Of a stretch of 64,000 nucleotides of DNA, positions 30,617-50,399 are shown piece by piece. Location of the stretch: the NCBI GenBank assembly GCA_023138975.1, contig JAGLON010000032.1, positions 12,903 through 76,902 on the forward strand. The letters run 5' to 3'. The stretch is from Candidatus Zixiibacteriota bacterium (GTDB lineage Bacteria; Zixibacteria; MSB-5A5; GN15; JAAZOE01). Below the pieces are notes generated by a model. The model did no database searches and was not told the origin of the DNA. It worked only from the letters and a program-made list of their open reading frames with translations. Both the position numbers and the translations under genes were made by a program. How positions within the stretch are numbered: the first letter of the stretch is position 1; every line of letters begins with the position of its first letter.

Positions 30617-31287
30617 AGACACGAATAAAAATATGTGGCATTACTAATATTGAGGATGCTGTAACAGCGGTAGAAGCAGGCGCCGACGCTCTCGGTTTTG
30701 TCTTTGCTAATAGTCCACGAAGAATATCACCGTCTCAGGTGCGAGAAATAATAAGCGCATTGCCTCCCTTCCTTGTTACGGTTGGCGTCTTTGTTGACTC
30801 GCCAAAAGAGGAAATAGAAAGAGTCTGCGCTGTCTCGGGCATTAACGTAGTGCAGTTGCACGGACATGAATCTCAAGAATTTATAGACTCATTATCAAAG
30901 CCGGTGACAAAGGTGTTTCGAGTAAAAGATAATAGCAATGTAAAATCGCTCCTCGCTGACTATCGACTCCGGCACTTTCTCCTCGATACTTATGATGAGA
31001 ACAACTTGGGTGGAACCGGGAAATCGTTCAACTGGACAATCGCACAAATAGCATCAGCTTTTGGCCGGGTAATTCTCTCCGGCGGACTTAACCCTGAAAA
31101 TATCAGGCAGGCGCTTACAGTAGCGAAGCCATATGCGGTCGATGTGTCAAGCGGGGTTGAGCTTTCACCGGGAGTAAAAGACAAATTGAAAATTCAACAG
31201 TTTATAAATGAGGTAAGACAATGGGACAGCCAAATCACTCAGGATACTTTGGTCAATACGGCGGACGATATGTCCCCGAGACAATAG
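30613..31287 (+). CDS. trpF: Phosphoribosylanthranilate isomerase
   Basis: 224 aa. KICGIT and [13 protein letters not shown] overlap with trpC. The C-terminal tail overlaps trpB by 67 nt. Confidence 0.9.
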
Positions 31288-32540
31288 TCGCCGCCCTTGA
31301 CGAGCTGGAGAGGGAATATCGTCGGTCAGTTAATGATGACGAATTCAAACAGGAGTTCACTTCATTGCTGCAAAACTATTCGGGGCGTCCGACTCCGCTA
31401 TATTACGCCAAACGCCTATCTGATAAATGGGACGGTGCGAAAATTTATCTCAAGCGGGAGGATTTGAATCATACCGGTGCGCATAAGATTAACAATTGCC
31501 TCGGTCAGGCATTGCTCGCTTCGAGAATGAATAAAAAAAGGATAATAGCTGAAACCGGTGCGGGACAGCACGGTGTGGCAGTTGCGACCGTTTGTTGTCT
31601 TTTTGGTATGAATTGCACGGTTTATATGGGATCTGAAGATATGGTAAGGCAAGCTCCCAATGTTGACCGGATGAAATTGCTGAAGGCAGAAGTAATCCCT
31701 GTCACATCCGGCACCGGAACTTTGAAAGACGCAACTAACGAAGCTATCCGCGATTGGGTAACCAATATTGAAAACACTCACTATATTATTGGCTCGACGG
31801 TTGGGCCGCATCCGTACCCGCTTATGGTTCGTGATTTCCAATCTGTCATCGGCCGGGAAGCAAGATCTCAGATGCTTGAATTCGAAGACTGCCTCCCTGA
31901 TGCTGTTGTCGCCTGTGTCGGGGGTGGAAGCAATTCGTTAGGTATGTTTCATGATTTCGTGAATGATATTGGTGTTTGTCTCTATGGTGTAGAATCGGCC
32001 GGAGAAGGCTTGGCTACGGAAAATCATGCGGCGACTCTAAATAAAGGCAAACCCGGAATTCTTCATGGAAGTTTAAGTTATTTACTGCAGACCGCCGACG
32101 GACAGATTCTGCCTACCCATTCCATAGCCGCTGGTCTTGATTATCCCGGCGTCGGTCCGGAACACAGCGCTTTTAAAGATTCCGGAAGAGTTAAGTATGA
32201 ATCCATTAGTGACAGCGAAGCCTTGAAGGCTTTTATTGAGTTATCGGAGACCGAAGGAATTATTCCGGCTCTGGAATCATCTTTCGCGCTTGCCTTTGCC
32301 AAAAAACTGGCAGGAAGCATGAATCCGAGTGAGAATATCCTTATATGTCTATCTGGGCGCGGTGATAAAGATCTTGCCAATGAAAACGTTGCCCGACTCA
32401 TCAATCAGCGAACTCAAACCAGGGAGCGGACCACAGATGTCCATAATATCAAAAACATTTGCCGGCTTCACACAAACCGGCCGGAAAGCCTTGATGCCCT
32501 TTCTGACCTCGGGTTATCCGGATCAGGAAACTTTTGTTAA
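31221..32540 (+). CDS. trpB: Tryptophan synthase beta chain (with a C-terminal extension of roughly 45 aa overlapping trpA)
   Basis: 439 aa. [16 protein letters not shown]-Lys block [21 protein letters not shown]. Confidence 0.95.
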
Positions 32541-33255
32541 GCTTCTTTATGAAGTCGAAGCCAACGGAGCTGATTTGGTGGAAATAGGTATTCCTTTTTC
32601 AGACCCGATGGCCGATGGGAAAACTATTCAAGCGGCTTCCCGTGAGGCTCTTAATAATGGTATGACGGTGCGGAAAACGCTTGAGATGATAAAGAGCATG
32701 CCGCGTAAACTGACGATACCGATAATTCTTATGAGTTATTTAAACCCGATTTTTAATTATGGTTTGCGGGATTTTTGCAGACATGCTTCAGATGTCGGAG
32801 TTTCGGGATTGATAGTACCGGATGTAATCCCGGACGAGGGAAGAGAACTTGAACGTGTTGCGGAAGTATTTGGAATCGACGTTGTCTATTTGTTGGCGCC
32901 AACCTCCAGCACTGAGCGGATACATATGATTTTGAATCAATCCCGCGGTTTTGTCTATCTGGTTTCTCTTGCCGGAGTGACCGGTGCCAGGGATTCTCTT
33001 CCCTTGGCTTTGAACCAATGGATACAGGCGATAAAAGAGCAAAGCCAACTCCCGGTTTGTGTCGGCTTTGGTATTTCGAATGTGTCCCAGGCTAAAGAAA
33101 TAGGTAGATCCGCTGACGGCATTATAATCGGAAGCGCGATTATTGATATCATTAAAAAACAAAACTCAACATCACAGATATTAAGTGCTGTCGGAGAGTT
33201 TATTACGGCTATGAGAAAGGGACTGAGCCATGATTCTTGTTACTATGAATGCTGA
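32437..33255 (+). CDS. trpA: Tryptophan synthase alpha chain
   Basis: ORF 32329-33255 trimmed to ATG 32437 (AGGGAG upstream). [47 protein letters not shown]. Confidence 0.9.
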
Positions 33256-34246
33256 AGCCACCGTTAAGCAAACCGGTACGGTCATTCAAAAAATTGAGGA
33301 GCTTGGGTATCGGCCGCATTTATCTTCGGAAGGTACTAAAACGGTCGTTGCTATGATAGGAGCCGGTCAAATGGTGCCTCCCGATATCTTTCTTGATATC
33401 TCCGGTGTTGAGGCATCCGTCTATTTAACTCAACCCTTTAAACTTGTCAGCCGGGCTTTTAAGAAAGATTCTACGGAAATTTCCGTAAACGGTTTAAAAA
33501 TCGGCGGAGACACAATTGTGGTAATGGCCGGACCCTGTGCGGTTGAAAGCCGTGAGCAAATTGAGTCAACCGCGAAATATGTAGCTGCCGCCGGAGCGAA
33601 AATACTGCGGGGAGGAGCGTTCAAACCCCGTACCTCACCTTATAGTTTTCAAGGCCTCGGGGAAGAAGGATTGCGCTACATGAGAGATGCCGCAGACAAG
33701 TATGAACTCAAAGTTGTAACCGAAGTTATGACACCGGATAAAGTTGCCTTGGTTGCAAAATACTCTGATATCCTGCAAATTGGGACCAGGAACATGCAAA
33801 ACTATTCGTTGTTGGAAGCGGTCGGCAAGATTACTAAGCCGGTTTTACTCAAACGCGGAATGATGTCAACGATAGAAGAACTTCTGATGTCAGCCGAATA
33901 TATTATGGCCGGCGGCAATCCGAATGTTATTCTATGCGAACGCGGTATCAGGAGTTTTGAGAAGTATACCCGCAACACGCTTGATATTTCAGCCGTTCCG
34001 ATTATCAAGCAACTCAGCCACTTACCAATTATCGTTGATCCCAGTCATGCTACCGGGAAACGAGAATTGGTCGGCCCGGTTTCCAAAAGTGCTGTGGCAG
34101 TTGGTGCTGATGGCTTGATGATAGAAACACATCCGAATCCGGAAGAAGCATTATCCGATGGGCCGCAGAGTTTATATCCCGACGAGTTTAGTTCTTTAAT
34201 GAATAGCCTGAAAAGGATTGCGGAGGTGGAAAATAGAAATATTTAA
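33230..34246 (+). CDS. 3-deoxy-7-phosphoheptulonate (DAHP) synthase, type I-beta with an N-terminal ferredoxin/ACT-like regulatory domain
   Basis: 338 aa. [42 protein letters not shown] roughly 70-aa N-terminal extension as in the Thermotoga-type enzymes. Overlaps trpA by 26 nt. Confidence 0.9.
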
Positions 34247-34858: not shown

Positions 34859-34887
34859 TTGACAAAAATATATAATTATTATATTAC
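34859..34887 (+). promoter_or_regulatory. Sigma70-type promoter upstream of the ECF sigma gene
   Basis: TTGACA (34859-34864) followed 15-17 nt later by overlapping TATATT / TATTAC. Confidence 0.4.
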
Positions 34888-34956: not shown

Positions 34957-35526
34957 ATGAGCGATTTGCATCAGGGAAATATTACTAACCTAATTGATAA
35001 ATGCAAGATGGGTGACGAGCAGGCTTGGTTTCAGCTTGTTGACCTTATTGCGCCGGTTATATTTTCCATTTGCAAACAGAATAGACTGTCGCGGGATGAG
35101 GGGTTTGATATTTACGGGCAGGTTTGCTACGAACTGGTCAACAATATCAATAAGCTCAAATCTCCTTCAAAAATACTCTATTTTGTCGCCACTATGACTC
35201 GCCGTAAGATATACAGCCTCTATAGAAAAATGCGCGTGAAGGATTATATCGATATTGATATATCTGAGCTGATTCCCGATGAAAAAAGTCCGAATCCTGA
35301 AAAGAACCTGGAAAGTCTACGCCGGAGGGAATGGCTGTTTGAGGCAATGATGAAACTTCCGGAAAAAGAATATCAGTTGTTACACCTTCTATTCTTTGAT
35401 AAAAACGAACCTTCTTACAAAGATATCGCAAAAAAGATGAAGATTCCAGTCTCATCTATTGGTCCAACGAGGGGAAAGGCATTAAATAGCCTAAAAAGAA
35501 TTATAAAATGGAAAAAGATAAAATAA
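34957..35526 (+). CDS. ECF-type (group 4) sigma-70 family RNA polymerase sigma factor
   Basis: 189 aa with only regions 2 and 4: AWFQLVDLIAPVIFSIC...YFVATMTRRKIYSLYRK, and LPEKEYQLLHLLFFDKNEPSYKDIAKKMKIPVSSIGPTRGKALNSLKR. Confidence 0.85.
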   Translation: MSDLHQGNITNLIDKCKMGDEQAWFQLVDLIAPVIFSICKQNRLSRDEGFDIYGQVCYELVNNINKLKSPSKILYFVATMTRRKIYSLYRKMRVKDYIDIDISELIPDEKSPNPEKNLESLRRREWLFEAMMKLPEKEYQLLHLLFFDKNEPSYKDIAKKMKIPVSSIGPTRGKALNSLKRIIKWKKIK

Positions 35527-35572
35527 TGGTATTATTTTATCTTTTTTGTGAGACTTAATCGTAGGTGAAATA

Positions 35573-36163
35573 ATGAGTAAGTCAGAAGAAGACATGAAGA
35601 AAATAGCCGTTTTTTTACATAGCCGGTACAATAATGTCGAATATGAGGAGATCTTGCAGATGATTTCCGGCGACGATGATTTGCGCCGAGTAATCAGGCA
35701 ATTGTCTGCCATTTATGATGAGAATTCCTCAATTGATTGGGAAAAGATAAAATCTCCCGCTCATGAGGTATTTAGAAACCTTCTTAAAGATATTAAAAGT
35801 GCCAAGTCTTCCAGGGATAACAACGTTGCCGTTAGAGTATTTGATTCGAGCTTGTTGCCGCTTCCTGAAGGAGTTAGACCGGCCGGAGTGGACACCCGGC
35901 GAATTAAGTATATTGTAAATGATCAGTTCGTTGAGTTATCTCTATATCCTGTATCTCCCGGTTCATATGAAGTAATCGGCCAAATCACAGGTACTTTTGC
36001 CAATGAGGGCTTTTCAGCCTATATGGAACACACTAATAAGAACTTTTCAGTAATTGTAAATGATTGCGGTGTATTTCGATTTCCCCGCGTTCCTGTAGGT
36101 AAATATTCTCTGACTATAACAAACGAAACCCAAACTATAGCTCGGGTAGAACTTGATCTATGA
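35573..36163 (+). CDS. Cytoplasmic protein of unknown function (candidate soluble anti-sigma/partner); C-terminal CarboxypepD_reg-like beta segment
   Basis: 196 aa with no TM segment, signal peptide or zinc anti-sigma motif. C-terminus reads GVFRFPRVPVGKYSLTITNE. Its stop overlaps the next start (ATGA). Confidence 0.5.
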   Translation: MSKSEEDMKKIAVFLHSRYNNVEYEEILQMISGDDDLRRVIRQLSAIYDENSSIDWEKIKSPAHEVFRNLLKDIKSAKSSRDNNVAVRVFDSSLLPLPEGVRPAGVDTRRIKYIVNDQFVELSLYPVSPGSYEVIGQITGTFANEGFSAYMEHTNKNFSVIVNDCGVFRFPRVPVGKYSLTITNETQTIARVELDL

Positions 36164-38916
36164 TAACTTTCGCTGAAATATCCCGCTTAGGTTCTCGTGA
36201 TTATCTTCAGGAGATACTCACTAGTCGTTATCAGAGTAATACTGAGGCGCTGGTTTCTGAGATTAACAGATCGGTAAATCATCTGTTGCATGCCGATCTC
36301 AAAGAGGCGGAAAAGTATATTGCAAAGTTAAAACCGTTTTTCAAGCATTTACCTTTAAAATTTCGTCCCCGGGGTTTGGCGATGGAAGCCAGGTTTGAGC
36401 ATTGGTCGGGACGAAGTATCTCAGCTTTGAATAAATATCAGAAAGCGGTGAACGACTTAACCAAATATCATGATTTTGAATCTGCGGCGAGAACCCGTCA
36501 GGGTTTGATGGATGTACTTATGTACATCGGCAGGCACGATGATGCGATAAAAACAGGGAAAAAAGCATTACGGTATTTTCGAAGGTCAGGAAATATGGCA
36601 TTATCCGCGAAAATTATGACCAATATCGGCAATGTCTATCATCGTTTGGATAAGAACCATCTGGCGCTGGGATACTATAATAAGGCCCGGGAGCAGTTCG
36701 TGGAGACGGGCGGTTTTCCGCTGGCTTTAGTAGATTACAATCGGGCTAATATCTATTCCAACTATAATGATATCAGGAAAGCAGAAGAGCTCTATAAATC
36801 AGCTTCAAAAATATATCAAGATATCGGTATGGTTCTCGGTGTCGGGAAAGCCGAATACTCATTGGCTTATTTATATTTTTTAGATAATCGCTATAGTACT
36901 TCTTTACGTGCTTTCGAAAAAGTTTATGAAGCATTTATAGATTTAGGTGATATCAAATCAGCTTCGGTCTGCCGTTTGGATATTGCGGAAATTCATATTC
37001 ACTTGAACCAGTACAGTGCTTCGCTTTACTATTGCGAGGAAGCGCTGAAAATGTTGAAAAAATGCGGATTGAGATATGAGCAGGGGAAAGCTCATTATTT
37101 TATGGCCGAATCCTACCGAAAGCTGGGCGATTTGCATAAAGCGGAACAATCTTTGAAAATCGCTGACAGTCTGTTTAAGAAAGAAAAGAATCATCTTTGG
37201 AAGGGAATGATTCAATTGTGCAGGAGTCGAATAAAAACCTCCGATGGAAAAACTAAAGCGGCCTTGATCTCTGCAGACAACGCCAAGAAGCTCTTTACCC
37301 TGAGTGGTGATGAACGTAGGAAAATAGATGCTCAAATTACCATTATAAGAATTTACTTGAATGACTCCAATGCCAAGTCGGCCTTCCAAAGAGCGCATGG
37401 TTTACTTCATCGAGATATGATTTCAAGCCAAAAAAGAGATTTGTATGAAATACTTGGCGATTATCACCTCAAGTACAACCGTCCCGATACAGCGCTCGAC
37501 TATTATAAGCGCGGTATTGATATCACGGAGAAAATGATTGTTAATCTCTATCCCGATGAAATCAGGTTTTTCTTTGCGGCCGATAAGTATCCATTGTATC
37601 TGAATGCGGTTACCTGTCTCTTGCGTTTGGGAAGAGTAGATGAGTCGTTTATTCAGCATTCTCAGGCATTGTCAGTAATGAACAGCCGTCAACTTGCGGA
37701 TAAAGTAATTGAAAAGGAAATTCCCCGGGAGTACCTTGACAATCGGTCGAAACTTCGGGTATCACTTAAAAAGTATAACCAGATGGTTACCGGAACGCGA
37801 CACTTGATCTCTTCCACAAAAGATATTCAGGCTACAGAGCGAAAGCTCTGGTCACAAGAAAGAAAAATCAGAGTTCAGCTGTATGGCCAGGAAAATCAAC
37901 ACAACGAGAGTCTCTGTATTGATGCTGGATTAAACAGGAAGTTAAAGGCCGGTGAGACGCTCATTAGTTTTGTTGCCCACCAAGATTCTATTGGAGCTTT
38001 TGTCGTCAAGAAGAGTAAAATCGACTATATACAGCTCCCGGTATCCGCTGAGAAGCTTCATGCCGCTGTTCGTGAGTTACATTTTCTTATGGAAAAGGAT
38101 GTTTACGCGCCGTCCATAACCGATGGCTCAGAAGCGATTAACAAATATCTCAAAGGCATCTCAGGATGGCTCATAAATCCGATTAGGGAGCTTCTTTCGG
38201 AAAAAATAATTTTTCTGGCCGACGGTCTATTTGCTCAAATACCATTTGCGGCGCTTCCTTTGATTGATGGTAAGCTGCTATCACAGAAATATGATTTTCG
38301 TATAATTGTTAACCCTAAGGATTTATTGCAAAGAAAAACATCATCACAAGGGAAAGTCACCGGACGAAGCGCTGTTTTTGCTCCGGAAAACAAAAACTTG
38401 GCGATGATTGAACTGGAAAACCAAATGATCTCGGAGTTGTTCACCGGAGTTAATTCTTATACCGGTAAAACTGCGGTATCTGAAAATCTGAAACTTGAAC
38501 TTGAAAAATCTAAAGGATTTGTGCATATTGCATCACATGCATCGCGCTCATCTGAAAACCCTTTGTTTTCTAAGATAATGCTCGATGACGGACCGTTTTT
38601 TCCGTTTGATTTGTTCGGTGGAGGAATTAATGCCCGTTTGGTATGTTTGTCGGGTTGCCAGACAGCCGCACCGGGGATATACTTTGGTAATTCATTTAGC
38701 CTCGCCAAAGCATTTTATCAGGCCGGCGCTCAATTTGTTTTGGCGTCTCTCTGGCCGGTTTCAGATAAAGTTAGCCTGGTCTTTATGACGGAGTTTTATA
38801 AAGCGCTCAAGAGAAACAAAAACATTTACTTCGCTTATTCAAAAGCGGTTTCGGAAGTTAGGGCAGTCAATCCGAATCCCGCGTTTTGGAGCCCTTTTAT
38901 ACTAATTGGTTTATAA
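36160..38916 (+). CDS. TPR-repeat + CHAT (caspase-like) protease domain protein
   Basis: 918 aa with no signal peptide. A long TPR-like array (repeated A..Y/L..A..IY.. helices) is followed by a CHAT core with the His/Cys dyad VHIASHA ... LVCLSGCQTA. Confidence 0.85.
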   Translation: MITFAEISRLGSRDYLQEILTSRYQSNTEALVSEINRSVNHLLHADLKEAEKYIAKLKPFFKHLPLKFRPRGLAMEARFEHWSGRSISALNKYQKAVNDLTKYHDFESAARTRQGLMDVLMYIGRHDDAIKTGKKALRYFRRSGNMALSAKIMTNIGNVYHRLDKNHLALGYYNKAREQFVETGGFPLALVDYNRANIYSNYNDIRKAEELYKSASKIYQDIGMVLGVGKAEYSLAYLYFLDNRYSTSLRAFEKVYEAFIDLGDIKSASVCRLDIAEIHIHLNQYSASLYYCEEALKMLKKCGLRYEQGKAHYFMAESYRKLGDLHKAEQSLKIADSLFKKEKNHLWKGMIQLCRSRIKTSDGKTKAALISADNAKKLFTLSGDERRKIDAQITIIRIYLNDSNAKSAFQRAHGLLHRDMISSQKRDLYEILGDYHLKYNRPDTALDYYKRGIDITEKMIVNLYPDEIRFFFAADKYPLYLNAVTCLLRLGRVDESFIQHSQALSVMNSRQLADKVIEKEIPREYLDNRSKLRVSLKKYNQMVTGTRHLISSTKDIQATERKLWSQERKIRVQLYGQENQHNESLCIDAGLNRKLKAGETLISFVAHQDSIGAFVVKKSKIDYIQLPVSAEKLHAAVRELHFLMEKDVYAPSITDGSEAINKYLKGISGWLINPIRELLSEKIIFLADGLFAQIPFAALPLIDGKLLSQKYDFRIIVNPKDLLQRKTSSQGKVTGRSAVFAPENKNLAMIELENQMISELFTGVNSYTGKTAVSENLKLELEKSKGFVHIASHASRSSENPLFSKIMLDDGPFFPFDLFGGGINARLVCLSGCQTAAPGIYFGNSFSLAKAFYQAGAQFVLASLWPVSDKVSLVFMTEFYKALKRNKNIYFAYSKAVSEVRAVNPNPAFWSPFILIGL

Positions 38917-38936: not shown

Positions 38937-40808
38937 ATGTACCATAATATTCGAAAAGTGGGAATTGTTATTATTGTGTGTGCTTATGTTTGTGGTAGCA
39001 TACTATCGGCACAGAATATTCCATTCAATAACTGTGGGATTTTGATCGGCGGACCGAATGAATGCGTCCTGTTTTTATCTATGGGCGGTATGCAGAATGT
39101 ATTTGTACTGGAAAATTATGGTGATTTTGTAATAGGTGACGAAGTGTGCGTTTCAGGTATGATTGATTACGGTTGTATATCTTCCTGCAGCGACTCTTTT
39201 CTATGCATAGTAGATAATGATATTGTCAGATTATCGGAAACAGATTTTCCTTATGGCGCTAATGGCGTGCTGGTAACTGCCGAATCTTGTGTGGTCTTTC
39301 AGTCCTTTTGGGACCCGGCCATGTCAATGACCCTTGAATATTATGGCAATTATGAGTCTGGTGATACCGTCTTTGTGATCGGGATGTTCAGCGATTCTTG
39401 TGAAGGAATCTGCCCGGACGCAGTTAGTTGTTTACAGAACAACACGATTGAAGGCATTGATCAACCGCCGATGCCGATGCAGGGAGCTGCGGTTCTTGAA
39501 CTGCAACCTGCAGTAAATCCGGAAGATGTCTTTTTTGATTTCAATTTAACAATGAGTGATAGTATCGATCAGCAGAATTTCTATCTAATACGGTTTGAAG
39601 ATAATTTGGAAATTGGAGATATAATAAGGCATCTGAGTCAGGATCCTCGGATAGTTTTTGCCGAACCGAATGTGGAATTTGGCCTCCCGGGAAATCTGCA
39701 GATGAGTATGTCTTTCCCCGATGAAAGCCGTCCACCATTGATTTTAGGCTCCAGTCCTCCGGGGTACTACCAGCAGGGCGCAACCTATACGATTGGAATT
39801 GATTCAGCCCAGAAGATTGCTAATGGGTTTGAGATAAAAATTGCGGTTATCGACAATGGTGTAGATTTTTCTCATCCGATGCTCTCAGAGATTCTAATCG
39901 AGGGTGGTTATGATTATCTGGATGATGATAATTATCCGGAGTATGAAGAAGGGACAGCAGCGAGTCATGGTACCTTTGTCACTGGGTTAATTGCGTTGAC
40001 AGCTCCAAAATGTAAAGTTTTACCAATACGCGCATTTGATGGAGACGGTATCGGGAACAGTTTTGCGATTGCAAAATCCATCTATCATGCCATTGATATG
40101 AATGTTGATGTTATCAATATGAGCTTCGGCATGAACGAGTATAATACTTTAGTTGAGATTGCCTGCAGCACGGCAATCGCTGCGGGAATAACTATTGTTG
40201 CCGCCGGAGGCAACGATGGGTCTATTTCGCCGGTATATCCAGCCGCATTTAATAATGTAATTGCCGTTTCGGCCGTGGATTCGAATGACGTTTTAGCGAC
40301 GTTTTCTAACTTTGGCAGCTATATTGATATTTGTGCCCCAGGAGTCAAATTGTACAGTTCTCTAGCTGGTGAGTATAATTGGGGGACCTGGAGCGGTACT
40401 TCCTTTGCCTCCGCCTTAGTTTCGGCGACCTGTGTATTAGCTCTTGATCTTGATAAGGATATGAGTGCGGCTGCGATGGAAAAACATATCCGAAATACAG
40501 CTGAGACTAAACTTATGAGCGGGAATATAACGCCGCATGATTTCACATATGGCTATGGTCGATTGAATACAGCTAATGCGGTTTGGTCGTTAAAGCCTGG
40601 TTCTGTAAACTGCGGTGATTGTAATGATGACAAAACTGTTAATCTTGCTGATGCGGTATATTTAGTCAGCTATATATTCCATAATGGTCCCCAGCCAGTT
40701 AATATGAGCATTGCAGATGCCAATTGCGATTCGGTAATAAACCTCGGCGACGCCATTTATATCATTAATTACGTGTTTAAATCCGGCGCCTCTCCCTGCT
40801 GTAATTAG
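38937..40808 (+). CDS. Secreted subtilisin-like S8 peptidase with two N-terminal Cys-rich modules and a C-terminal dockerin-like module
   Basis: ORF 38886 (TTG) trimmed to ATG 38937 (GAGGAA upstream; signal MYHNIRKVGIVIIVCAYVCGSILSA). Catalytic blocks IAVIDNGVD, HGTFVTG, GTSFASA. Dockerin-like tail at nt 40611-40805. Confidence 0.9.
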   Translation: MYHNIRKVGIVIIVCAYVCGSILSAQNIPFNNCGILIGGPNECVLFLSMGGMQNVFVLENYGDFVIGDEVCVSGMIDYGCISSCSDSFLCIVDNDIVRLSETDFPYGANGVLVTAESCVVFQSFWDPAMSMTLEYYGNYESGDTVFVIGMFSDSCEGICPDAVSCLQNNTIEGIDQPPMPMQGAAVLELQPAVNPEDVFFDFNLTMSDSIDQQNFYLIRFEDNLEIGDIIRHLSQDPRIVFAEPNVEFGLPGNLQMSMSFPDESRPPLILGSSPPGYYQQGATYTIGIDSAQKIANGFEIKIAVIDNGVDFSHPMLSEILIEGGYDYLDDDNYPEYEEGTAASHGTFVTGLIALTAPKCKVLPIRAFDGDGIGNSFAIAKSIYHAIDMNVDVINMSFGMNEYNTLVEIACSTAIAAGITIVAAGGNDGSISPVYPAAFNNVIAVSAVDSNDVLATFSNFGSYIDICAPGVKLYSSLAGEYNWGTWSGTSFASALVSATCVLALDLDKDMSAAAMEKHIRNTAETKLMSGNITPHDFTYGYGRLNTANAVWSLKPGSVNCGDCNDDKTVNLADAVYLVSYIFHNGPQPVNMSIADANCDSVINLGDAIYIINYVFKSGASPCCN

Positions 40809-41068: not shown

Positions 41069-43294
41069 ATGAGAAAACTTACACTAACAATGTTCCTGTG
41101 TCTGGCATTTATCATGATGTCGGCAACTGCTTGGTCAGGCGAAGGGATTCCGGTTGATAAAAAACAAATGCTGGGAGATATTCTTCAGAGCGTATCATTT
41201 GAAAAACAAAGCCTTGAAGTTCCGTCAATGACCGGAGGCAATGGTACCGGATGTGTTGATGTTGATATTGAACTTCCAGATTCAATTATGGTTGAGAACT
41301 TTTTTGAGCCGGTTTTTGCTGAAGGCTATTTCGAAGTTATTAATTGTGGTGATGAGACTGGACAAGTAGAATTAAGTCTTTCGGCCGCCATTAATATTGC
41401 CGGCTTCATTGATACCACTATTTATCTTCCCGGTTTTCCGATTGTTCTCGGTGCCGGAGAAACACTATTCCAGGATTTAGTTTTTCCAGTACCACCATTT
41501 GCTGGTAGTTATACATTTTGTATATATGCGGTAACCGGTGATGTTGCCGATACTGCTTGTGCGACAATGATTGTAACGGTAGGCGATATGCCCGGTTTCC
41601 CGATTGACGTTTGTGGTATCCTTATGCAGGGCGAAAACTGCGTTTTGTTTGCTCCGGCCTGCAATGAAAGGGATATCTTTGTATTGTCGGATTATGGCGA
41701 ATTCCAGGTTGGCGATACAGTTAGAGTCGTTGGCGAAATGGATATGGACTGTCAAACCGAATGTGTCGGCGCAATGGGTTGTATAACGACGGAAACGATT
41801 GAATCCTGCGGCGGTTGGATGCCCGATATTCCTTTCGAAGACTGCGGTGTGTTGGTTCAAGGAACCGACTGTGTGCTCTTCTCTCCATTTATTCAGCAGC
41901 ATTATCCTGCGGACTCCACCGGCTTTGAAAGTCTATTAGTTGTCCTTGATGAGTATGGTACCTTTGTTGTCGGAGACACGGTCTTTGTTTCGGGCCAATT
42001 CCATCCAAATTGTGAAACGACATGCTCCGACGCAATGGGGTGCATTAAAGATAACGACATTGAAACTTGTGAAGGGGAAGATCCGGAATACCCATTTGGC
42101 GCGATTGGTATTCTTATCCAGGGAACCGATTGTGTTGTGTTTGTCCCCAAAGGGCATGACGGAGCGTTTGTCCTCGATAATTATGGGAATGCGGTCGTGG
42201 GCGATACCGTCTTTGTCGGAGGTATCCTTGATATTAATTGCGATACCGAATGTTCCGATGTTGATGGCTGTATCACAGACAATATTATAGAAATCGTTAA
42301 TAATCCCGGCGGCGGTAATGACTGGGATATACCGTTCTTTGCATTTGGTGTGATTATTCAGGGCGAGAATTGTGTCTTATTTGAAGAGGGAATGACCGGT
42401 GATCGTTTGCTTTTGGATAACTATGGCACATTTATAGTAGGCGATTCCGTCTGTGTCGAGGGTACCCTTGAACTTGATTGTGAGAGTGACTGCATCGATA
42501 TCATTGGCTGTGTCGAAGTTAATGAAATTATTGACTGCAGCAATAATCAGCCGGATTCGACTTATTATCAGGGTAGAGGAGTATTAACTCAGGCTACCGA
42601 CTGTGTGCTTTTCTGTGAAGCGCAGACAGGTGCTCTTCTATATCTTGACGATTTAGGAAACTTTGGTGACGGCGATACGGTCTGTGTTGATGGTATCCTT
42701 GATATGTCCTGCGAAACGAGCTGCAGTGATGCCCAAGGCTGTATCACCGTTAACCTTATCGTAAGTTGTGGATCTAATCCTCAGGATTATATTGAACTGC
42801 CGGGTGTCTTGGTACAGGTTGAAAACTGTCTCCTGTTCGCTCCGGGCGGAATGAATACCAATGGGTTTGTTCTTGATAACTATGGTGATTTTGTAGAAGG
42901 TGATGAAGTTTATGTGACTGGAATGGTTGATTTGGACTGTCAAACAGATTGTGTCGGTGCCTTCGGATGCATTAACGATAATACGATCGAAGCCTTAAAT
43001 CCGCCCGCGGTAAATATGGTTGATTTAAATGCTCATAACTATCCGAATCCGTTCAACCCGGCAACAACGATTTCGTTTGATCTTCCTTCGGCTATGACCG
43101 TGACGGTTAGCGTTCATAATATCCTGGGGCAGACTGTTTCTACTCTCATTGATGGTGAAACCCGTCAGGGACGGCAGAATATTCGCTGGGATGGAAATGA
43201 TTCGTATAACCAGAAAGTAGCCAGCGGTATTTACTTCTATCGGATTATTACAGATGACAAGGTTGTAACCAAGAAAATGGTTTTGACCAAATAA
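41069..43294 (+). CDS. Secreted protein with six tandem ~70-aa four-Cys modules and a T9SS C-terminal sorting domain
   Basis: 741 aa with signal peptide MRKLTLTMFLCLAFIMMSATAWS. Six repeats lie at about nt 41603-43010. The C-terminus NYPNPFNPATTISFDLP...SGIYFYRI...KKMVLTK is the Por/T9SS CTD pattern. Confidence 0.8.
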   Translation: MRKLTLTMFLCLAFIMMSATAWSGEGIPVDKKQMLGDILQSVSFEKQSLEVPSMTGGNGTGCVDVDIELPDSIMVENFFEPVFAEGYFEVINCGDETGQVELSLSAAINIAGFIDTTIYLPGFPIVLGAGETLFQDLVFPVPPFAGSYTFCIYAVTGDVADTACATMIVTVGDMPGFPIDVCGILMQGENCVLFAPACNERDIFVLSDYGEFQVGDTVRVVGEMDMDCQTECVGAMGCITTETIESCGGWMPDIPFEDCGVLVQGTDCVLFSPFIQQHYPADSTGFESLLVVLDEYGTFVVGDTVFVSGQFHPNCETTCSDAMGCIKDNDIETCEGEDPEYPFGAIGILIQGTDCVVFVPKGHDGAFVLDNYGNAVVGDTVFVGGILDINCDTECSDVDGCITDNIIEIVNNPGGGNDWDIPFFAFGVIIQGENCVLFEEGMTGDRLLLDNYGTFIVGDSVCVEGTLELDCESDCIDIIGCVEVNEIIDCSNNQPDSTYYQGRGVLTQATDCVLFCEAQTGALLYLDDLGNFGDGDTVCVDGILDMSCETSCSDAQGCITVNLIVSCGSNPQDYIELPGVLVQVENCLLFAPGGMNTNGFVLDNYGDFVEGDEVYVTGMVDLDCQTDCVGAFGCINDNTIEALNPPAVNMVDLNAHNYPNPFNPATTISFDLPSAMTVTVSVHNILGQTVSTLIDGETRQGRQNIRWDGNDSYNQKVASGIYFYRIITDDKVVTKKMVLTK

Positions 43295-43363: not shown

Positions 43364-43402
43364 ATGGAGATGGGTGATTACACATCCATCTCCATATTTT
43401 AC
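43364..43402 (+). terminator. Probable terminator hairpin
   Basis: Perfect 10-bp stem ATGGAGATGG / CCATCTCCAT followed by ATTTTA. Confidence 0.45.
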
Positions 43403-43591: not shown

Positions 43592-44224
43592 CTAGCGCGG
43601 TTGTTTTGTGTCCAGCGATATATGCTTTATATCAGACAAGCTTATTCGCTTATCATCTTTATCGTGGTCGTCATACACATACCATTGATCTTTGAAAACG
43701 AGCTTAGGCAAAATCAACGGCCGATAAGAAACCCTGCCTCCGTTTCCGTTGCCATTACTATTCTCATAGAATTTGATATGCACTTTAATCTTTAGCAGTA
43801 CCGCAGCCCAAATAAATATCTGAGTAATCGATTGAGGGTCGTTTAAATTCTCGGCACTACAGACAATGTCCCACAAGCTGGATAGCCCGGAGGGCAGGCG
43901 GGCTATGAGCTTATGAAGTAGAAGATTAACCGCTTCATGATATTCCCTGTTATTATCGTTTAATAGCTGACTCAAGCCGCCCAGTAAAAGTAGAATATCA
44001 TTCTCGGATAGATTTCGGAATGATGTGCTTTGTCTATGGAGAAGCCGATATGTCCTGGAAAAAGCGTCATAATATACTGGGATATTCGCTTGTGTCAGGG
44101 TCGAGATATATCGATATGCTGTTCTTGACGATATGTTACATTGCTTGACAATATCGCGAATTTTTAACTCACCCTTTTCATGCAGCATATAGGCGATATA
44201 AAGTATATTCTCGGTCTTGTTCAT
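43592..44224 (-). CDS. HTH (DeoR/YafY-like N-terminus) transcriptional regulator with a WYL-like C-terminal segment
   Basis: 210 aa. IRDIVKQCNISSRTAYRYISTLTQANIPVYYD forms the HTH. The C-terminus LVFKDQWYVYDDHDKDDKRISLSDI resembles the WYL core. Confidence 0.55.
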   Translation of the reverse strand: MNKTENILYIAYMLHEKGELKIRDIVKQCNISSRTAYRYISTLTQANIPVYYDAFSRTYRLLHRQSTSFRNLSENDILLLLGGLSQLLNDNNREYHEAVNLLLHKLIARLPSGLSSLWDIVCSAENLNDPQSITQIFIWAAVLLKIKVHIKFYENSNGNGNGGRVSYRPLILPKLVFKDQWYVYDDHDKDDKRISLSDIKHISLDTKQPR

Positions 44225-44722: not shown

Positions 44723-47700
44723 TTAATTTCTTGTAATGCCATATTTTATTATTCGGCGTCTGAATGTTGATAGTGGCATCCCTATAGATTTCGATGCTTT
44801 TGATTGATTCCAATTATATTTTTGCAATGCCTCAATAATCATCGCTTTTTCTGTATCCGATGAAATTTTAACTGAATCCTTATCAGTTTTTTCGGTGTTA
44901 ACGATACTGGCATCCAAGTCCGCTCTCTTAATTAATCGCTGACCATGAAGAATACACAGCCGTTCAACAACATTTTTTACTTCTCGTACATTCCCCGGCC
45001 AAGAATATTGAAGCAGGCATTGTAAAGCGTTTTGAGAAATATTCAGATTCTTATCTTCACCCAGAAATACTCGAGCAAAATATTTGATTAATAAGGGGAT
45101 GTCGCCTCTGCGTTCTCGGAGCGGGCTAATTTCAATAATAATAGTGTTGATTCGATAGTAGAGATCTTCACGGAAATTATTATCATCGATAAGTTCTCTT
45201 AGATTCTTATTAGTAGCGAAGACTAATCGTACATCCGTAGAGATAGTATGGTTGCTTCCAACCATTTCAAATTTTTGTCCGTCTATTACACGGAGTACTT
45301 TGGCTTGATACTCAAGAGGCATATCGCCTATTTCGTCAAGAAGCAGAGTTCCGCCATCGGCTAATTGAAATTTTCCGATTCGTTTTTGCACTCCGGTGGC
45401 AACTCCTTTGTCAACTCCGAATAATTCAGATTCAAATAAACTGCTTTGAAGTGCCGCGCAGTTAATCTTGACCAATGTCTTATCGGATCGAAGACTATAA
45501 TCATGAATCATCTGACACAATATCTCTTTACCTGTTCCGCTTTCTCCCAAAATCAAGACGCTCGCGTTCGACCGGGCAATCTCCGGTAGCTTTTCGAAAA
45601 TCCTCAGCATAGGTTCATCTTTAGTGACAAATGATCTTTGTACTCCGACCGAAGATAAATCCTGGATTAATTGATCGTTGGTTACCTGTATGATATTAAA
45701 CTTCTGCGCCAAAGTTATCATTAGACCAATAAAATTGGTCAAGGCGGAAACAAATGAAATATCGGATTTCTCAAATAGGGCCGGTATTGTGTTGTGATCC
45801 AGATAAAGGACTCCGAGAACCTTTTGATTATATGAAATAGGGACGCACAGAACCGACAAAATATTATACATTATCACACTTTTGAAATGTTTAGTGCGCT
45901 CATCCTTTAAGGCATCTGTGACAATCAAAGGATCAAAATTAATAGTCGCCATTTCAGAGATGCTTTTGCTCAGCGCGGTTATATCATGCAGACTCTTATT
46001 ATCACAATTATAAAAAGCCTTAACGTGTAATGATTCTTTGTCATTGGAGTAGAGCAGCAATGCGCCTCGTTCGGCACCCGATTCATTGATAGCGAACCGT
46101 AATATCTTCAATACAGCATTGTGATAATCCGTCACATCAGATAAGATATCGGAGATTTTGTAAAAAACATCGATTCTTTCGTCGGTAACCGAATTACTCC
46201 TTTTAAGGTCATCCACTTCCTTTTTTAATTGCGTCATTAATGTTTTGTTAGAAAGCTGTTTTAGTAATTTTAGACTTTGTTCCAAATATTTCAGAGCCAG
46301 TCGATTTTGCTGTTTGTCTTTGTACCGGTTGGAAATCTTCCGGCAAACTATCGCGGCAATGAATATAAACCCCTTCTCGTTGAGCAATTGGTAGAGTATT
46401 TTTAATTCATCCAGATACTCATTATCTGATGAATCATTTTTGTAAAGATTATATATGACGTTTAATGATTTAAATATCGGGACCGACGATTTGGAAAATC
46501 CTTTTATCCTTGTCAGGACTTCATCTGGAATAATTCCGAATATTTCAAACTTTTTAGATAGAGCCAGGTGCAAAATTCCAAGAAAATACGAATAATAACA
46601 ATGGTGACTGTTAAGTGATTCCAGTATGTCCTGAAAATTATTCAGATCATACTCATCCTGATAATAAAAATTGCAAAAGGCTCTTAGTAATCTTAGTTCC
46701 TCCAATGAATTCACATTACCCATTTCTCTAAAAATGCTCTCAGCTCGATTAAAATACTCGGTGTATCTATACTTATTTCCTCTATAAAAGGCAATCTCAG
46801 CCAGTTTATGAAGCACTTCTCCACGAATCCTTTTTGCCCCTATTGAACTGACAATATTATTACATTCGTCATAAGTCTTTTCAGCGTTATCTAAATCACC
46901 GGTTATAAGATATAAATGGGCTTCCAATATCTTGTATAAACTAAGCTTAGAAATGGTCGTATTACAATAAGCGCGATACTCCTGCAGCCAGTATCTGGCC
47001 TTTGAGTAATTGCCCAAGCGGGCATTACTAAATGCTATTACATGGTAGAGAGAACTCAAACGGGAATCATCTTGTAAAGCAGCCGCTCGTTTTTTCGCGT
47101 TCTTGCACAATGATATTGCGGTTTTATACTGAGCCATCTCATTATAGATAGATGCAAGATTTATCATGGAGTTGACAGTATGAAACTTATCCTTTAACAA
47201 TTCACCGGCTTTAATCGCTTTTAGGTAGTTATCTCGAGGTTTTAATAAATTGCCGGTTAGCCAGTAATGAGCTCCAATATCATTGTAATAACCGACTTTC
47301 TCCTCAGCCGAAAGTTTGTCCTCATGCTGCTCAAGAATATCTTGCAGCCTTTTTAGCCCTTTGGTCTCACCCTGATATGTCCAGGTTCGTAATCGCTTGA
47401 GCGAAAACTCAAAATTGCTTCTGAATTTTAGCGCCGTGTCAATAATTTTACGGGCATCCTTAGTTTTACCGATAAGTAAACATTGTTTTATAAGGCATAG
47501 TATGAATTCACGCTGTAAATATATATTTTTTGGAGATATTCGAAGAGCTTCTTTACCAATATCAATTGCGTTTTGAGTCCTTCCATTTCCAGCCAGACTG
47601 AAACAAAGCCTCTGTAATACCTCCCCACGGGCTTCATTGTGACCTTTTAAGTGGGCTAATGATTGATTAGTATTGTATAGTAATAGCAGGTTTTTAAGTT

Positions 47701-48856
47701 TACCGCCGTTTCTTTGAAGCTTTTCCGAATTGTTATATATTGTCTTAAGATTGCTATAAGTTTCATCTGGTAGTGGTGATGAGTTTAGCGGCAGATGGCG
47801 ATGATTAATCCGCTTGTAAATATCAATCAGTACCTCCGGTGATGCGTCTATCTCCCAGTAATGGTCGTGGCGGTTTATGTTCGCATTATTGATAAGACTT
47901 TTTATCATCTGGAAGCAGGCTAAGCGATTGTCACTTAAATCAACCTCCAGATCCTGAAGTAGTTCCTCGGGAATTCCCACAATCCGCGAAGTATCTGTAA
48001 AGAACCGTGCCAGAGTTTCAGGTTCTTTTTGTAGTTTGCCGATATTTGATAAAAACTGAGAAAGCAATTGCGACGACAGTAACCTGCAGCTATAAACTTC
48101 AAAATTCTTTAGGGTAATTAGCTTACACCTCAATAATTCATCTAAAAGTACCATCGGTCGGTTTCGATGATTCTTCTGACAAAGAGAAGTGATCATCTTA
48201 TTAATCGCGGATGCTTTACCCTGTATTTTTGCCGACTGCATGAGAACTTTCAACATAATTCCTACAGAGTAATTATCAGATACCGCTGTAGCCGGACAAT
48301 CCTCGAATATTTCAGGAGCTATATGCATCGGAGTTCCTGATATTATTCCTTTTAAGGGGGTGTCCGCAGACCTGAGACTATCGAGATCAGTGAGGATTAT
48401 TTTACCTGATGTTCGATGTATAAGGAAATTTTCAAGCTTTATATCGCAATGAACTAAATTCAGAAAATGCAAATAGTCTATTATTGAGCAAATTTCATAA
48501 AATGACTCTGGAAAACGCTTGACAAAACTAGATGGCGTCAATACTTGCCAGTCTTTCGACTGTAAGTAAGGATACTCAATAATTGGTAAACGATTTACTC
48601 TCTGAATGGCCCTCGCGGTTAACACTAAACCGGATTTGATTGTTTTCTGAAGATGAAATGAGTTTACGAGAGCGTCCGCCAAAATGGATTCTTCAATAGA
48701 AGATTTTTGATTTGTAATTTTCAGAAAACAAGTTTTGCCATCCTTTTTACTTTCTGCTTCCCATGAAGTAGTAAAGTCATTTTCTGACAATAGTGTCTTC
48801 AACTTGTATCTGTCTCTCACAGAAGACATTAGTTTACTAGCCGGCTTTTTATTCAT
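44723..48856 (-). CDS. Multidomain regulator: Ser/Thr-kinase-like domain + TPR array + GAF + sigma54-interaction AAA+ domain + Fis-type HTH
   Basis: 1377 aa. Kinase blocks CFLKI (Lys), HCDIKLENF, LTDLDS, GTPMHIAPE, with no Gly-rich loop. AAA+ blocks GESGTGKE, ELFGVDKGVATGV (GAFTGA variant), GGTLLLDEIGDM, RLVFATN, FREDLYYRIN. C-terminal HTH NQSKASKSIGMPLSTFRRRI. Confidence 0.85.
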   Translation of the reverse strand: MNKKPASKLMSSVRDRYKLKTLLSENDFTTSWEAESKKDGKTCFLKITNQKSSIEESILADALVNSFHLQKTIKSGLVLTARAIQRVNRLPIIEYPYLQSKDWQVLTPSSFVKRFPESFYEICSIIDYLHFLNLVHCDIKLENFLIHRTSGKIILTDLDSLRSADTPLKGIISGTPMHIAPEIFEDCPATAVSDNYSVGIMLKVLMQSAKIQGKASAINKMITSLCQKNHRNRPMVLLDELLRCKLITLKNFEVYSCRLLSSQLLSQFLSNIGKLQKEPETLARFFTDTSRIVGIPEELLQDLEVDLSDNRLACFQMIKSLINNANINRHDHYWEIDASPEVLIDIYKRINHRHLPLNSSPLPDETYSNLKTIYNNSEKLQRNGGKLKNLLLLYNTNQSLAHLKGHNEARGEVLQRLCFSLAGNGRTQNAIDIGKEALRISPKNIYLQREFILCLIKQCLLIGKTKDARKIIDTALKFRSNFEFSLKRLRTWTYQGETKGLKRLQDILEQHEDKLSAEEKVGYYNDIGAHYWLTGNLLKPRDNYLKAIKAGELLKDKFHTVNSMINLASIYNEMAQYKTAISLCKNAKKRAAALQDDSRLSSLYHVIAFSNARLGNYSKARYWLQEYRAYCNTTISKLSLYKILEAHLYLITGDLDNAEKTYDECNNIVSSIGAKRIRGEVLHKLAEIAFYRGNKYRYTEYFNRAESIFREMGNVNSLEELRLLRAFCNFYYQDEYDLNNFQDILESLNSHHCYYSYFLGILHLALSKKFEIFGIIPDEVLTRIKGFSKSSVPIFKSLNVIYNLYKNDSSDNEYLDELKILYQLLNEKGFIFIAAIVCRKISNRYKDKQQNRLALKYLEQSLKLLKQLSNKTLMTQLKKEVDDLKRSNSVTDERIDVFYKISDILSDVTDYHNAVLKILRFAINESGAERGALLLYSNDKESLHVKAFYNCDNKSLHDITALSKSISEMATINFDPLIVTDALKDERTKHFKSVIMYNILSVLCVPISYNQKVLGVLYLDHNTIPALFEKSDISFVSALTNFIGLMITLAQKFNIIQVTNDQLIQDLSSVGVQRSFVTKDEPMLRIFEKLPEIARSNASVLILGESGTGKEILCQMIHDYSLRSDKTLVKINCAALQSSLFESELFGVDKGVATGVQKRIGKFQLADGGTLLLDEIGDMPLEYQAKVLRVIDGQKFEMVGSNHTISTDVRLVFATNKNLRELIDDNNFREDLYYRINTIIIEISPLRERRGDIPLLIKYFARVFLGEDKNLNISQNALQCLLQYSWPGNVREVKNVVERLCILHGQRLIKRADLDASIVNTEKTDKDSVKISSDTEKAMIIEALQKYNWNQSKASKSIGMPLSTFRRRIIKYGITRN

Positions 48857-50003: not shown

Positions 50004-50399
50004 ATAGTTTCTTGTTTCCGAGAGTCAAGCTATAGCTGTTAAGTTATTTAAGTCAGAGCCTGTTATCTTTATTTGGAGTAGTGGCTGATGCGAATCACAA
50101 TGTCTCATTAATAGCGCAGAAAACTATTGGCGCAAAAACCGAGTTTTTTAGTAAGAAACTTCTTTTAATTCTTGTAAAAGTAGACGTGTATACTTATCTT
50201 GTCGTATTGTAAAGAAGCATGCGGGCTTACAACTCAAAGCAAACTATACTGACGAATACCTCACGTCGTTCAGGTCATATTAAGTGGTTATAGGGACAAC
50301 TACATATTCAGTACCTCATTGCTCCATCGCCGAGTTAAATAAATTCGGATGAGTGGATTGCCGATAATCGCTCATAATCTCAACATTGGAGGCCCTTCC

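Follow-up and report, generated by a model that had tools for sequence, protein, structure and literature searches.

A CRISPR-free cassette of an ECF sigma factor, a soluble anti-sigma homologue, a TPR-CHAT protease and a secreted subtilase in Zixibacteria-type genomes

The four genes and their distribution

In a 64,000-nucleotide stretch of a Candidatus Zixiibacteriota genome (contig JAGLON010000032.1, positions 12,903 to 76,902; hereafter, the window), we found four closely spaced genes on the forward strand. They encode, in this order, an extracytoplasmic function (ECF)-type sigma factor (34957..35526, 189 aa), a 196-aa protein termed p196 (35573..36163, the last codon being the stop), a 918-aa protease that combines tetratricopeptide repeats (TPR) with a CHAT domain (36160..38916), and a secreted S8 subtilase with a dockerin domain (38937..40808, 623 aa). 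All four are taken from the list of open reading frames (ORFs) or from matches to domain models, and read directly from the sequence, the stop codon of p196 and the start codon of the TPR-CHAT gene overlap as ATGA (36160..36163). The start codon of S8, ATG 38937, lies 20 nt past the TPR-CHAT stop codon. An alternative in-frame TTG is present upstream at 38886 but is the less likely start, because translation from the ATG gives a classic signal peptide and leaves the 20-nt gap.

The sigma factor matches the sigma70-ECF model TIGR02937 over aa 25-181 (1e-16, 61 bits against a cut-off of 42.9) and, weakly, Sigma70_r4. Having the sigma2 and sigma4 regions only, and matching the superfamily model, it belongs to the ECF group (group 4). 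In a 19-residue hydropathy analysis, the sigma factor, p196 and the TPR-CHAT protein have neither a transmembrane segment nor a signal peptide, and S8 carries an N-terminal signal peptide. Tandem Repeats Finder (TRF) detected no CRISPR-like array in the 64-kb window. No cas gene is found by domain matches among its large ORFs, which include a C25 peptidase, a protein with thrombospondin type 3 repeats, a TonB-dependent receptor and a pyruvate formate-lyase-like enzyme. The gene tables of 5 related loci from Zixibacteria-type metagenome-assembled genomes (MAGs) and of 6 more distant loci, each with a flank of at most about 7-9 kb, hold no cas gene either. A preliminary description of this DNA, made from the letters alone, had given the same coordinates for the four ORFs, the ATGA coupling and the 20-nt gap, a cytoplasmic location for the first three products and a secreted S8, and the absence of cas genes and arrays throughout the 64 kb, and all of these readings hold.

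Scanning one genome per GTDB species with a p196 profile, we obtained 22 true loci, all from Zixibacteria, GN15 or 'uncultured Ignavibacteriales' MAGs. When these 22 species-representative loci and 5 further contigs were searched with the window proteins by tblastn, the order and orientation of sigma, p196, CHAT and S8 proved constant in every locus, as far as the contig extends. S8 falls within the contig in 16 of the 22 loci, each of which has all four genes, and the remaining 6 contigs stop inside or ahead of CHAT. In all Zixibacteria-type loci with a resolved junction (23/23), p196 and CHAT overlap as ATGA, and S8 comes after CHAT in every complete locus, in most of them 12-29 nt downstream. 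The flanks vary by locus and include a trp operon, a sigma-54 activator, cytochromes, iPGM and a helicase. Since the flanking genes differ between loci, the four genes therefore form a conserved unit.

The cassette also reaches beyond these genomes. Two metagenomic contigs (L033 and L034) carry the genes for sigma, p200, TPR-CHAT and S8 in the same arrangement, their p200 proteins being distant p196 relatives that cluster with proteins named Blastocatellia and Acidobacteria, and this arrangement is also found in L035, a contig without taxonomic assignment. Identities to the window proteins in these three contigs are 30-34% for sigma, 22-25% for CHAT and 31-33% for S8, indicating that at least these three genes are detectably related to those of the window; the anti-sigma gene is tied to p196 through profile searches. 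Moreover, a locus in an Anaerolineales MAG carries a complete cassette in which p204 and CHAT overlap by 4 nt. We conclude that the four-gene cassette is conserved across Zixibacteria-type, Acidobacteria-type and Chloroflexota sequences. Co-conservation of the sigma, p196 and TPR-CHAT trio, which the preliminary description had named beforehand as a check, is seen as a fixed order in 22 species representatives and in the distant contigs.

In every locus examined, the gene just ahead of the p196 homologue encodes a sigma factor. This includes two loci (L036 and L037) that consist of sigma and a p196-like protein (p19x) with no CHAT or S8 gene nearby. The occurrence of the two genes together even where CHAT and S8 are missing nearby confirms that sigma and p19x are the obligatory pair, and shows that CHAT and S8 are not needed by every family member. 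In L036 (1663-2849), the pair is a second sigma and p19x copy from the same MAG assembly as locus L031, and its version of the conserved loop motif described below is degenerate. In L037 (6120-7597), from Chloroflexi bacterium OHK40, the pair keeps the motif FDS..GVR.

A few loci depart from the common form. In L028 (8471-10456), the CHAT ORF ends after 661 aa and is followed by a 798-nt gap and then S8, and in L030 (7516-8001), the sigma ORF has only 131 aa, 30 of which align. Both could reflect decay of the cassette, through a frameshift or pseudogene, or an assembly error. An apparent p196-CHAT fusion of 1058 aa in L022 is an artefact, its junction being masked sequence in which successive N were read as X, and a Curtobacterium locus returned by a pattern scan is spurious, resting on a 36-residue match. 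No match to a high-GC member of the family was obtained by tblastn among the plasmids of PLSDB.

Features of the encoded proteins

The p196 protein falls into three parts. The N-terminal helical domain (aa 1-85, 35573..35827), with four predicted helices and anti-sigma homology, is followed by a linker loop (aa 90-113, FDSSLLPLPEGVRPAGVDTRRIKY, 35840..35911) and by a C-terminal, CarboxypepD_reg-like beta-sandwich (aa 114-196, 35912..36163, stop codon included). Taken alone, p196 gives a weak CarboxypepD_reg match at its C terminus, has no Pfam match above threshold and lacks His/Cys ligands; its maximum 19-residue hydropathy (KD19) is 0.82, with no hydrophobic segment. In the AlphaFold model, made with an alignment of 26 family members, the four N-terminal helices have a pLDDT of 55-68, residues 92-108 have no predicted secondary structure, with pLDDT below 50 at 103-105, and the sandwich consists of eight strands at a pLDDT of about 90.

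An alignment of 26 close members shows that conservation is distributed unevenly over these parts. The N-terminal region is variable, with the pattern L..L.GRL...E......I..DP.L, and the C-terminal half is moderately conserved. At the centre lies a near-invariant stretch, F-D-S-x-L-L-P-L-P-E-G-V-R-P-A-x-V-D-T-R-R-(L/I)-K-Y, within which D91, S92, P96, P98, E99, G100, R102, R109 and R110 are identical in all 26 sequences. The mean frequency of the top residue is 0.89 in the loop, compared to 0.42 in the N-terminal helices and 0.54 in the sandwich, making the loop the most conserved segment of the protein. In the wider family, the Asp and Ser of the loop and the Arg equivalent to R102 are likewise invariant or nearly so. 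This pattern suggests that the loop is a candidate motif for CHAT cleavage or docking.

When 1.84 billion cluster representatives were searched exhaustively by HMM, 431 relatives of p196 were returned. Of these, 98 score below 1e-30 and are nearly all about 190-200 aa long, and a more distant shell of proteins of 200-217 aa matches over the full length. Among 34 sampled distant members, 11 carry the motif H-x3/4-C-x2-C near the N terminus, typical of zinc-binding anti-sigma (ZAS) proteins, compared to none of the 26 Zixibacteria-type members; the columns of the ligands H, C and C are occupied by M, D and L in the aligned p196. Comparison of the Zixibacteria-type family with the 11 ZAS-bearing proteins by hhalign gives a full-length match (99.9%, E 7e-33). 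Searched against PDB, a profile of the N-terminal region finds the anti-sigma domain of DdvA (8RLZ, 2.9e-6) and full-length DdvA (8ROT, 2.1e-5) as its top two matches, followed by RslA (3HUG), RsiW (5WUQ), ChrR and RskA. The DdvA, RslA and RsiW matches appear only when the profile includes the ZAS-bearing relatives, which mainly carry them. A profile of the whole p196 protein finds nothing significant in PDB, and Foldseek with the p196 model, whose helical half is of low confidence, finds generic Ig/FN3-like sandwiches only and no anti-sigma factor. Weak matches to zf-HC2 and to PF13620 each occur in 6 of the 26 close members, and one p196 relative is annotated 'anti-sigma factor RsiW' by the Joint Genome Institute (JGI).

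Because p196 is homologous over its full length to ZAS relatives, matches anti-sigma structures with its N-terminal region and always has a sigma gene upstream, we conclude that it is by homology a predicted soluble anti-sigma factor, a member of a ZAS-type family that has lost its former zinc ligands. The preliminary description had taken the 196-aa protein for a soluble anti-sigma factor, which this homology supports, and had also stated that it bears no recognisable anti-sigma motif. The latter statement holds for the sequence of p196 itself but not for the family, given its homology to relatives with the ZAS motif.

The TPR-CHAT protein contains a TPR superhelix (about aa 66-510, 36355-37689) and a CHAT domain (aa 663-917, 38146-38910); the CHAT match has an E value of 2.5e-37, and many TPR families match the 918-aa protein as well. 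The candidate catalytic dyad, H793 (38536-38538) and C833 (38656-38658), lies in the motifs HIASHA (aa 789-794) and LSGCQTA (aa 830-836), both noted in the preliminary description; H789 is conserved, too. The His and Cys of the dyad are kept throughout the 22 full-length orthologues, distant ones among them, which bears out the earlier claim of an intact active site and led us to reject a pseudo-protease. A periplasmic CHAT domain as in DdvA was rejected as well, there being no signal peptide or transmembrane segment.

The AlphaFold2 model of the protein (pLDDT 86.5, pTM 0.83) has about 25 TPR-type helices followed by an alpha/beta CHAT domain. Its best match in PDB by Foldseek is human separase (9HN0_B, E 1.3e-16, TM-score on query 0.58), and it also matches Csx29 in Craspase (8EEY_B, E 2.5e-16), in line with the likeness to Csx29 first proposed from the sequence, and DdvA (8ROT, E 1.5e-12). 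Among CHAT proteins, the CHAT sequence profile reaches only Csx29 (7ZOQ, 2.7e-9) and DdvA (3.2e-6). The Csx29 family model NF041237 scores 23.2 bits against a cut-off of 300, aligning the active-site core alone. Thus, the protein has the architecture shared by separase, Craspase and DdvA and lies outside the Csx29 family.

S8 matches Peptidase_S8 (1.8e-44), Dockerin_1 (1e-6) and, weakly, the Fervidolysin prodomain, and is laid out as a signal peptide, a Cys-rich N-terminal module, a prodomain, a catalytic domain and a C-terminal dockerin. The triad residues D306, H344 and S489 and the oxyanion residue N426 do not vary among 23 orthologues, nearly all of which have an N-terminal signal. Since S8 is present in every lineage that has the full cassette, it is the hard-wired exported component of the module. 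It had first been listed as a candidate regulon member; it is more than that, being the fixed fourth gene of the operon in all complete loci.

Known sigma switches, a proposed mechanism and its alternatives

Two characterized systems join a TPR-CHAT protease to the control of a sigma factor. In the DdvS/DdvA system of Myxococcus xanthus, an ECF sigma factor is paired with a transmembrane anti-sigma factor that carries a periplasmic TPR-CHAT part (PMC11506125, PMC6061681). The CHAT site of DdvA faces a linker beside its own anti-sigma domain, DdvA-like proteins are reported only from Myxococcota and one Comamonas species, and the trigger of DdvA was not found (PMC11506125). The cassette resembles DdvA in several respects: the DdvA anti-sigma domain is the best PDB match of the N-terminal profile of the p196 family, the TPR-CHAT parts match and share the conserved His/Cys dyad, and in both, a CHAT cut is proposed, and so far only proposed, in a flexible linker adjoining the anti-sigma domain. 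The DdvS/DdvA operon also ends in a peptidase gene, putatively of the C25 type, whereas the window cassette ends in S8. Moreover, DdvA is one polypeptide with a transmembrane helix and a periplasmic TPR-CHAT part and is RseP dependent, whereas the window encodes two soluble cytoplasmic proteins that are translationally coupled. In contrast to DdvA, p196 is without zinc ligands and has an extra beta-sandwich, and no genes of CRISPR or of the cyclic-oligonucleotide-based antiphage signalling system (CBASS) lie near the cassette. The window does hold a gene for a 1226-aa gingipain-like C25 peptidase with a propeptide (10081-13761, forward strand; Peptidase_C25 1.4e-51), which is 21 kb off and unlinked to the cassette.

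In type III-E CRISPR systems, Csx30 binds CASP-sigma with its N-terminal domain and docks with its C-terminal domain on the CHAT part of Csx29, which cleaves Csx30 in a flexible loop (PMC10028731). Here, too, a cytoplasmic TPR-CHAT protease of matching fold is encoded side by side with an inhibitor and a sigma factor, and Csx30, a two-domain soluble sigma inhibitor cut in a loop, parallels p196 in anatomy, although for p196 we infer the cut. However, type III-E systems have Cas7-11 and a CRISPR array, neither of which occurs in the window, and no cas gene is present in the 11 related loci with gene tables. No similarity to Csx30 was detected: p196 has no NCBIfam match, and Csx30 (565 aa) is in none of the p196 search results. 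Csx31 has no counterpart in the cassette, the secreted S8 is an extra fixed member, and the activator cannot be a target RNA bound by Cas7-11. The analogy to Craspase and Csx30 put forward in the preliminary description is consequently half right: fold and roles are parallel, but p196 is not similar to Csx30, and DdvA is the better analogue. Because defining features of the Craspase module and of the DdvA family alike were looked for and are missing, the cassette stands outside both. It is a CRISPR-free, soluble, split variant of the anti-sigma switches linked to TPR-CHAT proteins.

A third comparison concerns the ECF54 group. One sentence of a 2022 review (PMC8999054), which cites Huang 2015 and Casas-Pastor 2021, mentions that ECF54 genes have conserved neighbours with carboxypeptidase, subtilase and CHAT domains and that control by proteolysis was proposed. 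PF13620 (weak), PF12770 and PF00082 occur in that order in all our complete loci, a likeness for which the ECF54 side comes from that single sentence. Casas-Pastor et al. 2021 place ECF54 in actinobacteria and give it no putative anti-sigma factor, whereas our loci are from Zixibacteria-type MAGs and the 'carboxypeptidase-like' neighbour is an anti-sigma homologue; the likeness is one of neighbour domains. The association of sigma, CHAT and subtilase genes is not wholly new. New here are the anti-sigma identity of the carboxypeptidase-like neighbour, whose closest solved relative is DdvA, and its invariant exposed loop, together with the spread over Zixibacteria-type, Acidobacteria-type and Chloroflexota sequences, the cytoplasmic location of all three regulators and the lack of any CRISPR component found nearby. 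Finally, a preprint (bioRxiv 10.1101/2024.05.08.593097) outlines a type III CRISPR system in which a SAVED-Lon protease, CalpL, acts with the anti-sigma factor CalpT and the ECF-like sigma factor CalpS. As outlined there, the protease is a Lon protease, activated by cyclic oligoadenylate and CRISPR linked, in contrast to the CHAT protease of the window.

Considering these features together, we propose a self-contained four-gene signalling operon with a CHAT-gated sigma switch, a reading to which we give an even chance. From the homologies and conservation patterns above, we infer its steps, from sigma binding and CHAT cleavage with its site to the signal and the regulon. The N-terminal helical domain of p196 would keep the ECF sigma factor inactive, and the ATGA overlap would set a fixed ratio of p196 to TPR-CHAT. 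The p196 protein would dock on TPR-CHAT, probably via the beta-sandwich, the invariant loop or both. A cytoplasmic cue reaching the TPR superhelix would then lead the His/Cys site to cut p196 at FDS..LPLPEGVR-PA..VDTRR, most likely after an Arg. Degradation of the p196 fragments would free the sigma factor and raise transcription of its targets, with the co-encoded S8 as a fixed output and with secreted or surface proteins that differ from locus to locus. The preliminary description had likewise suggested a stand-alone protease-gated sigma switch. Co-conservation, anti-sigma homology, the dyad, the fold and the lack of visible cas genes speak for that suggestion, and its kinship to Csx30 and the status it gave S8 do not stand.

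The proposed position of the cut draws on the separase likeness. The invariant loop of p196 holds E99-G-V-R102 and R109-R110. Proteases of clan CD often take Arg at P1. Separase, the structure that the full-length TPR-CHAT model resembles most, has an identity of only about 11% and an unrelated biology, and it cuts after the Arg of ExxR, as quoted in PMC11506125, a site that E99-G-V-R102 resembles over four residues. Cleavage after Arg, as suggested by EGVR and RR in the loop, is only a lead. In a more specific version of our proposal, the cassette is the free-standing cytoplasmic form of a TPR-CHAT signalling arm that type III-E CRISPR systems and DdvA have put to specialised use; a separase-like protease would gate a widespread sigma/anti-sigma pair, cutting an invariant Arg-containing anti-sigma loop once the TPR array binds an endogenous cytoplasmic cue, with a subtilase as hard-wired output. 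This version is more tentative, its chance falling somewhat short of even.

If the switch operates as proposed, it would represent a new class of ECF regulation, in which a soluble anti-sigma factor is removed by a dedicated caspase-like protease and the sigma factor is controlled without any membrane step, CRISPR component or nucleotide signal. An ECF group listed without an anti-sigma factor in the classification literature would thereby gain a mechanism, an origin of the Csx29/Csx30/sigma and DdvA arrangements would be suggested, and synthetic biology would have one more orthogonal sigma switch, gated by a protease. The switch would also be a simple system for learning how prokaryotic TPR-CHAT proteases are turned on when no CRISPR complex is involved. 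As a minimal, all-soluble system of four genes, it allows sigma binding, cleavage and the cleavage site to be addressed with three purified proteins.

Several observations weigh against a CHAT-gated, autoregulated switch. A search for an ECF-type motif, which the preliminary description had proposed as a check for the operon, for S8 and for the gene at 41069, gave no such motif: across 23 loci, covering the 250 nt before sigma and the 450 nt after S8 and allowing a 5-mer, a spacer of 14-19 nt and a 4-mer, no bipartite promoter stood clearly above shuffled controls, and the top matches were A/T-rich noise. A housekeeping-type promoter, TTGACA-N17-TATATT, is found upstream of sigma in the closest relatives. 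The window has a sigma-70-like element, TTGACA-N17-TATTAC (34859..34887, forward strand), about 70-98 nt upstream of the sigma gene, read from the sequence and a weak call. A similar element, TTGwyA-N16-18-TAyww(t/c), precedes sigma in 5 of 27 related loci, all of them close relatives, compared to a mean of 0.3 and a maximum of 3 in shuffled sequences. A scan with a stricter consensus did not list the 34859-34887 element and returned 24 promoter-like sites against 24.2 expected. With no ECF-type motif and a housekeeping-type promoter, neither autoregulation nor the regulon has support. The TPR array is conserved to the same degree as the CHAT domain, which fits a conserved partner and is uninformative on the signal. 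Among the sigma and p19x pairs free of CHAT and S8 (L036, L037), at least one protein (P0155) retains FDS..GVR, so the motif may have another or a structural role. Conserved ECF neighbours may also be targets rather than regulators, as Casas-Pastor et al. caution in their treatment of such neighbours.

The main rival is an ordinary sigma/p196 switch under some other control, such as the redox or zinc control of ZAS relatives or a partner switch, with CHAT and S8 as co-transcribed outputs. The pairs without CHAT or S8, the zinc ligands typical of redox-sensing ZAS proteins that distant relatives keep, and the caution of Casas-Pastor et al. that neighbours may be targets all agree with it. However, the zinc motif occurs in none of the 26 Zixibacteria-type members, so another input would be needed, and the coupling of p196 to CHAT by ATGA is invariant. 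Moreover, the best-conserved part of p196 is the exposed loop and not the sigma-binding helices, and a cytoplasmic 918-aa TPR-CHAT protein has no obvious output role beside a secreted subtilase. We regard this alternative as fairly unlikely; if CHAT and S8 were mere outputs, the finding would shrink to a well-conserved but ordinary sigma/anti-sigma operon.

Alternatively, CHAT could degrade or process the sigma factor directly, with p196 serving as an adaptor or inhibitor of the protease. The review statement on ECF54 (PMC8999054) proposes such a role, and the p196 sandwich, given its weak similarity to CarboxypepD_reg, could be a protease-regulatory module. This is improbable in view of the bona fide anti-sigma domain of p196. 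In addition, in a paired alignment of sigma and p196 from 20 loci, the sigma2-sigma4 linker has no stretch conserved in the way of the p196 loop, P114 being its sole nearly invariant residue.

A role in phage defence or conflict, in which the TPR part senses an invader protein and CHAT, S8 or both act as effectors in the style of abortive infection, is suggested by the defence functions of Craspase and DdvA and by weak PADLOC domain matches (BovA CHAT region, 1.7e-6; subtilase model, 7e-15). No PADLOC system model fits, however, and the loci are flanked by housekeeping genes (trpBA and DAHP synthase, iPGM, cytochromes, a glycosyltransferase) and not by defence islands. S8 is exported and therefore cannot serve as an intracellular suicide effector, and the TPR region is well conserved, not diversifying. 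We consider this reading, like the preceding one, to have a low probability. A chance or lineage-specific juxtaposition without joint function is effectively refuted by synteny, since order, orientation and spacing are constant in more than 25 independent loci from three lineages with unrelated flanks.

Downstream and neighbouring genes

Downstream of S8, the window encodes a 741-aa Cys-rich repeat protein with a C-terminal sorting domain of the type IX secretion system (T9SS; 41069..43294, forward strand; Por_Secre_tail and TIGR04183 matches). This gene follows S8 only here and in the closest relative, L001; elsewhere, the position is taken by an S8-PKD protein, an FG-GAP protein or another secreted protein. 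The stretch from S8 to the repeat-protein gene is free of terminator-like sites, and the best-scoring one in the scanned region comes after the repeat-protein gene, at 43364-43395. The gene had been put forward as a regulon candidate, which it may be, but it is a variable neighbour outside the conserved core: possibly co-transcribed or a regulon member, it is a local addition at most.

The Cys-rich N-terminal module of S8 (aa ~29-180, within 38937-39480) is shared with the repeat protein, which has about eight repeats of it, with the pattern CG.L..G..C.LF...G....L.N.G.F..GD.V.V.G. In tblastn searches, the repeat protein cross-matches the S8 genes of three other loci (L008, L014 and L030), and the module is missing from shorter S8 orthologues of about 470-500 aa. 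S8 and the repeat protein may have a common extracellular target.

Immediately upstream of the window cassette are trpB, trpA and a DAHP synthase gene (31221-34246). The same three genes precede the cassette in L001 (1-2139), where they are separated from sigma by inserted genes for a TonB-dependent receptor, a DUF4154 protein and a hybrid histidine kinase. On the other side, convergent to the cassette and about 1.4 kb past the repeat-protein gene, lies a gene on the reverse strand (44723-48856) for a 1377-aa protein with Ser/Thr protein kinase, TPR, GAF, sigma-54 interaction AAA+ and Fis-type helix-turn-helix (HTH) domains. Such a fusion of a kinase with a bacterial enhancer-binding protein is unusual. 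Between this gene and the repeat-protein gene, also on the reverse strand (43592-44224), is a gene for a 210-aa HTH and WYL-like protein (PADLOC WYL 6e-13, Pfam HTH_11). WYL regulators are often tied to defence or stress loci.

Farther downstream, a gene at 50349-54425 encodes a 1358-aa protein with DUF7901 and 14 stretches that match the thrombospondin type 3 repeat model. Part of this protein is encoded by a 177-bp tandem repeat (51492-52888) of about 6.8 copies with 81% identity. Long ORFs overlap the 1358-aa region on the opposite strand (52095-54347) and on the same strand in other frames (52960-53535 and 53536-54252).

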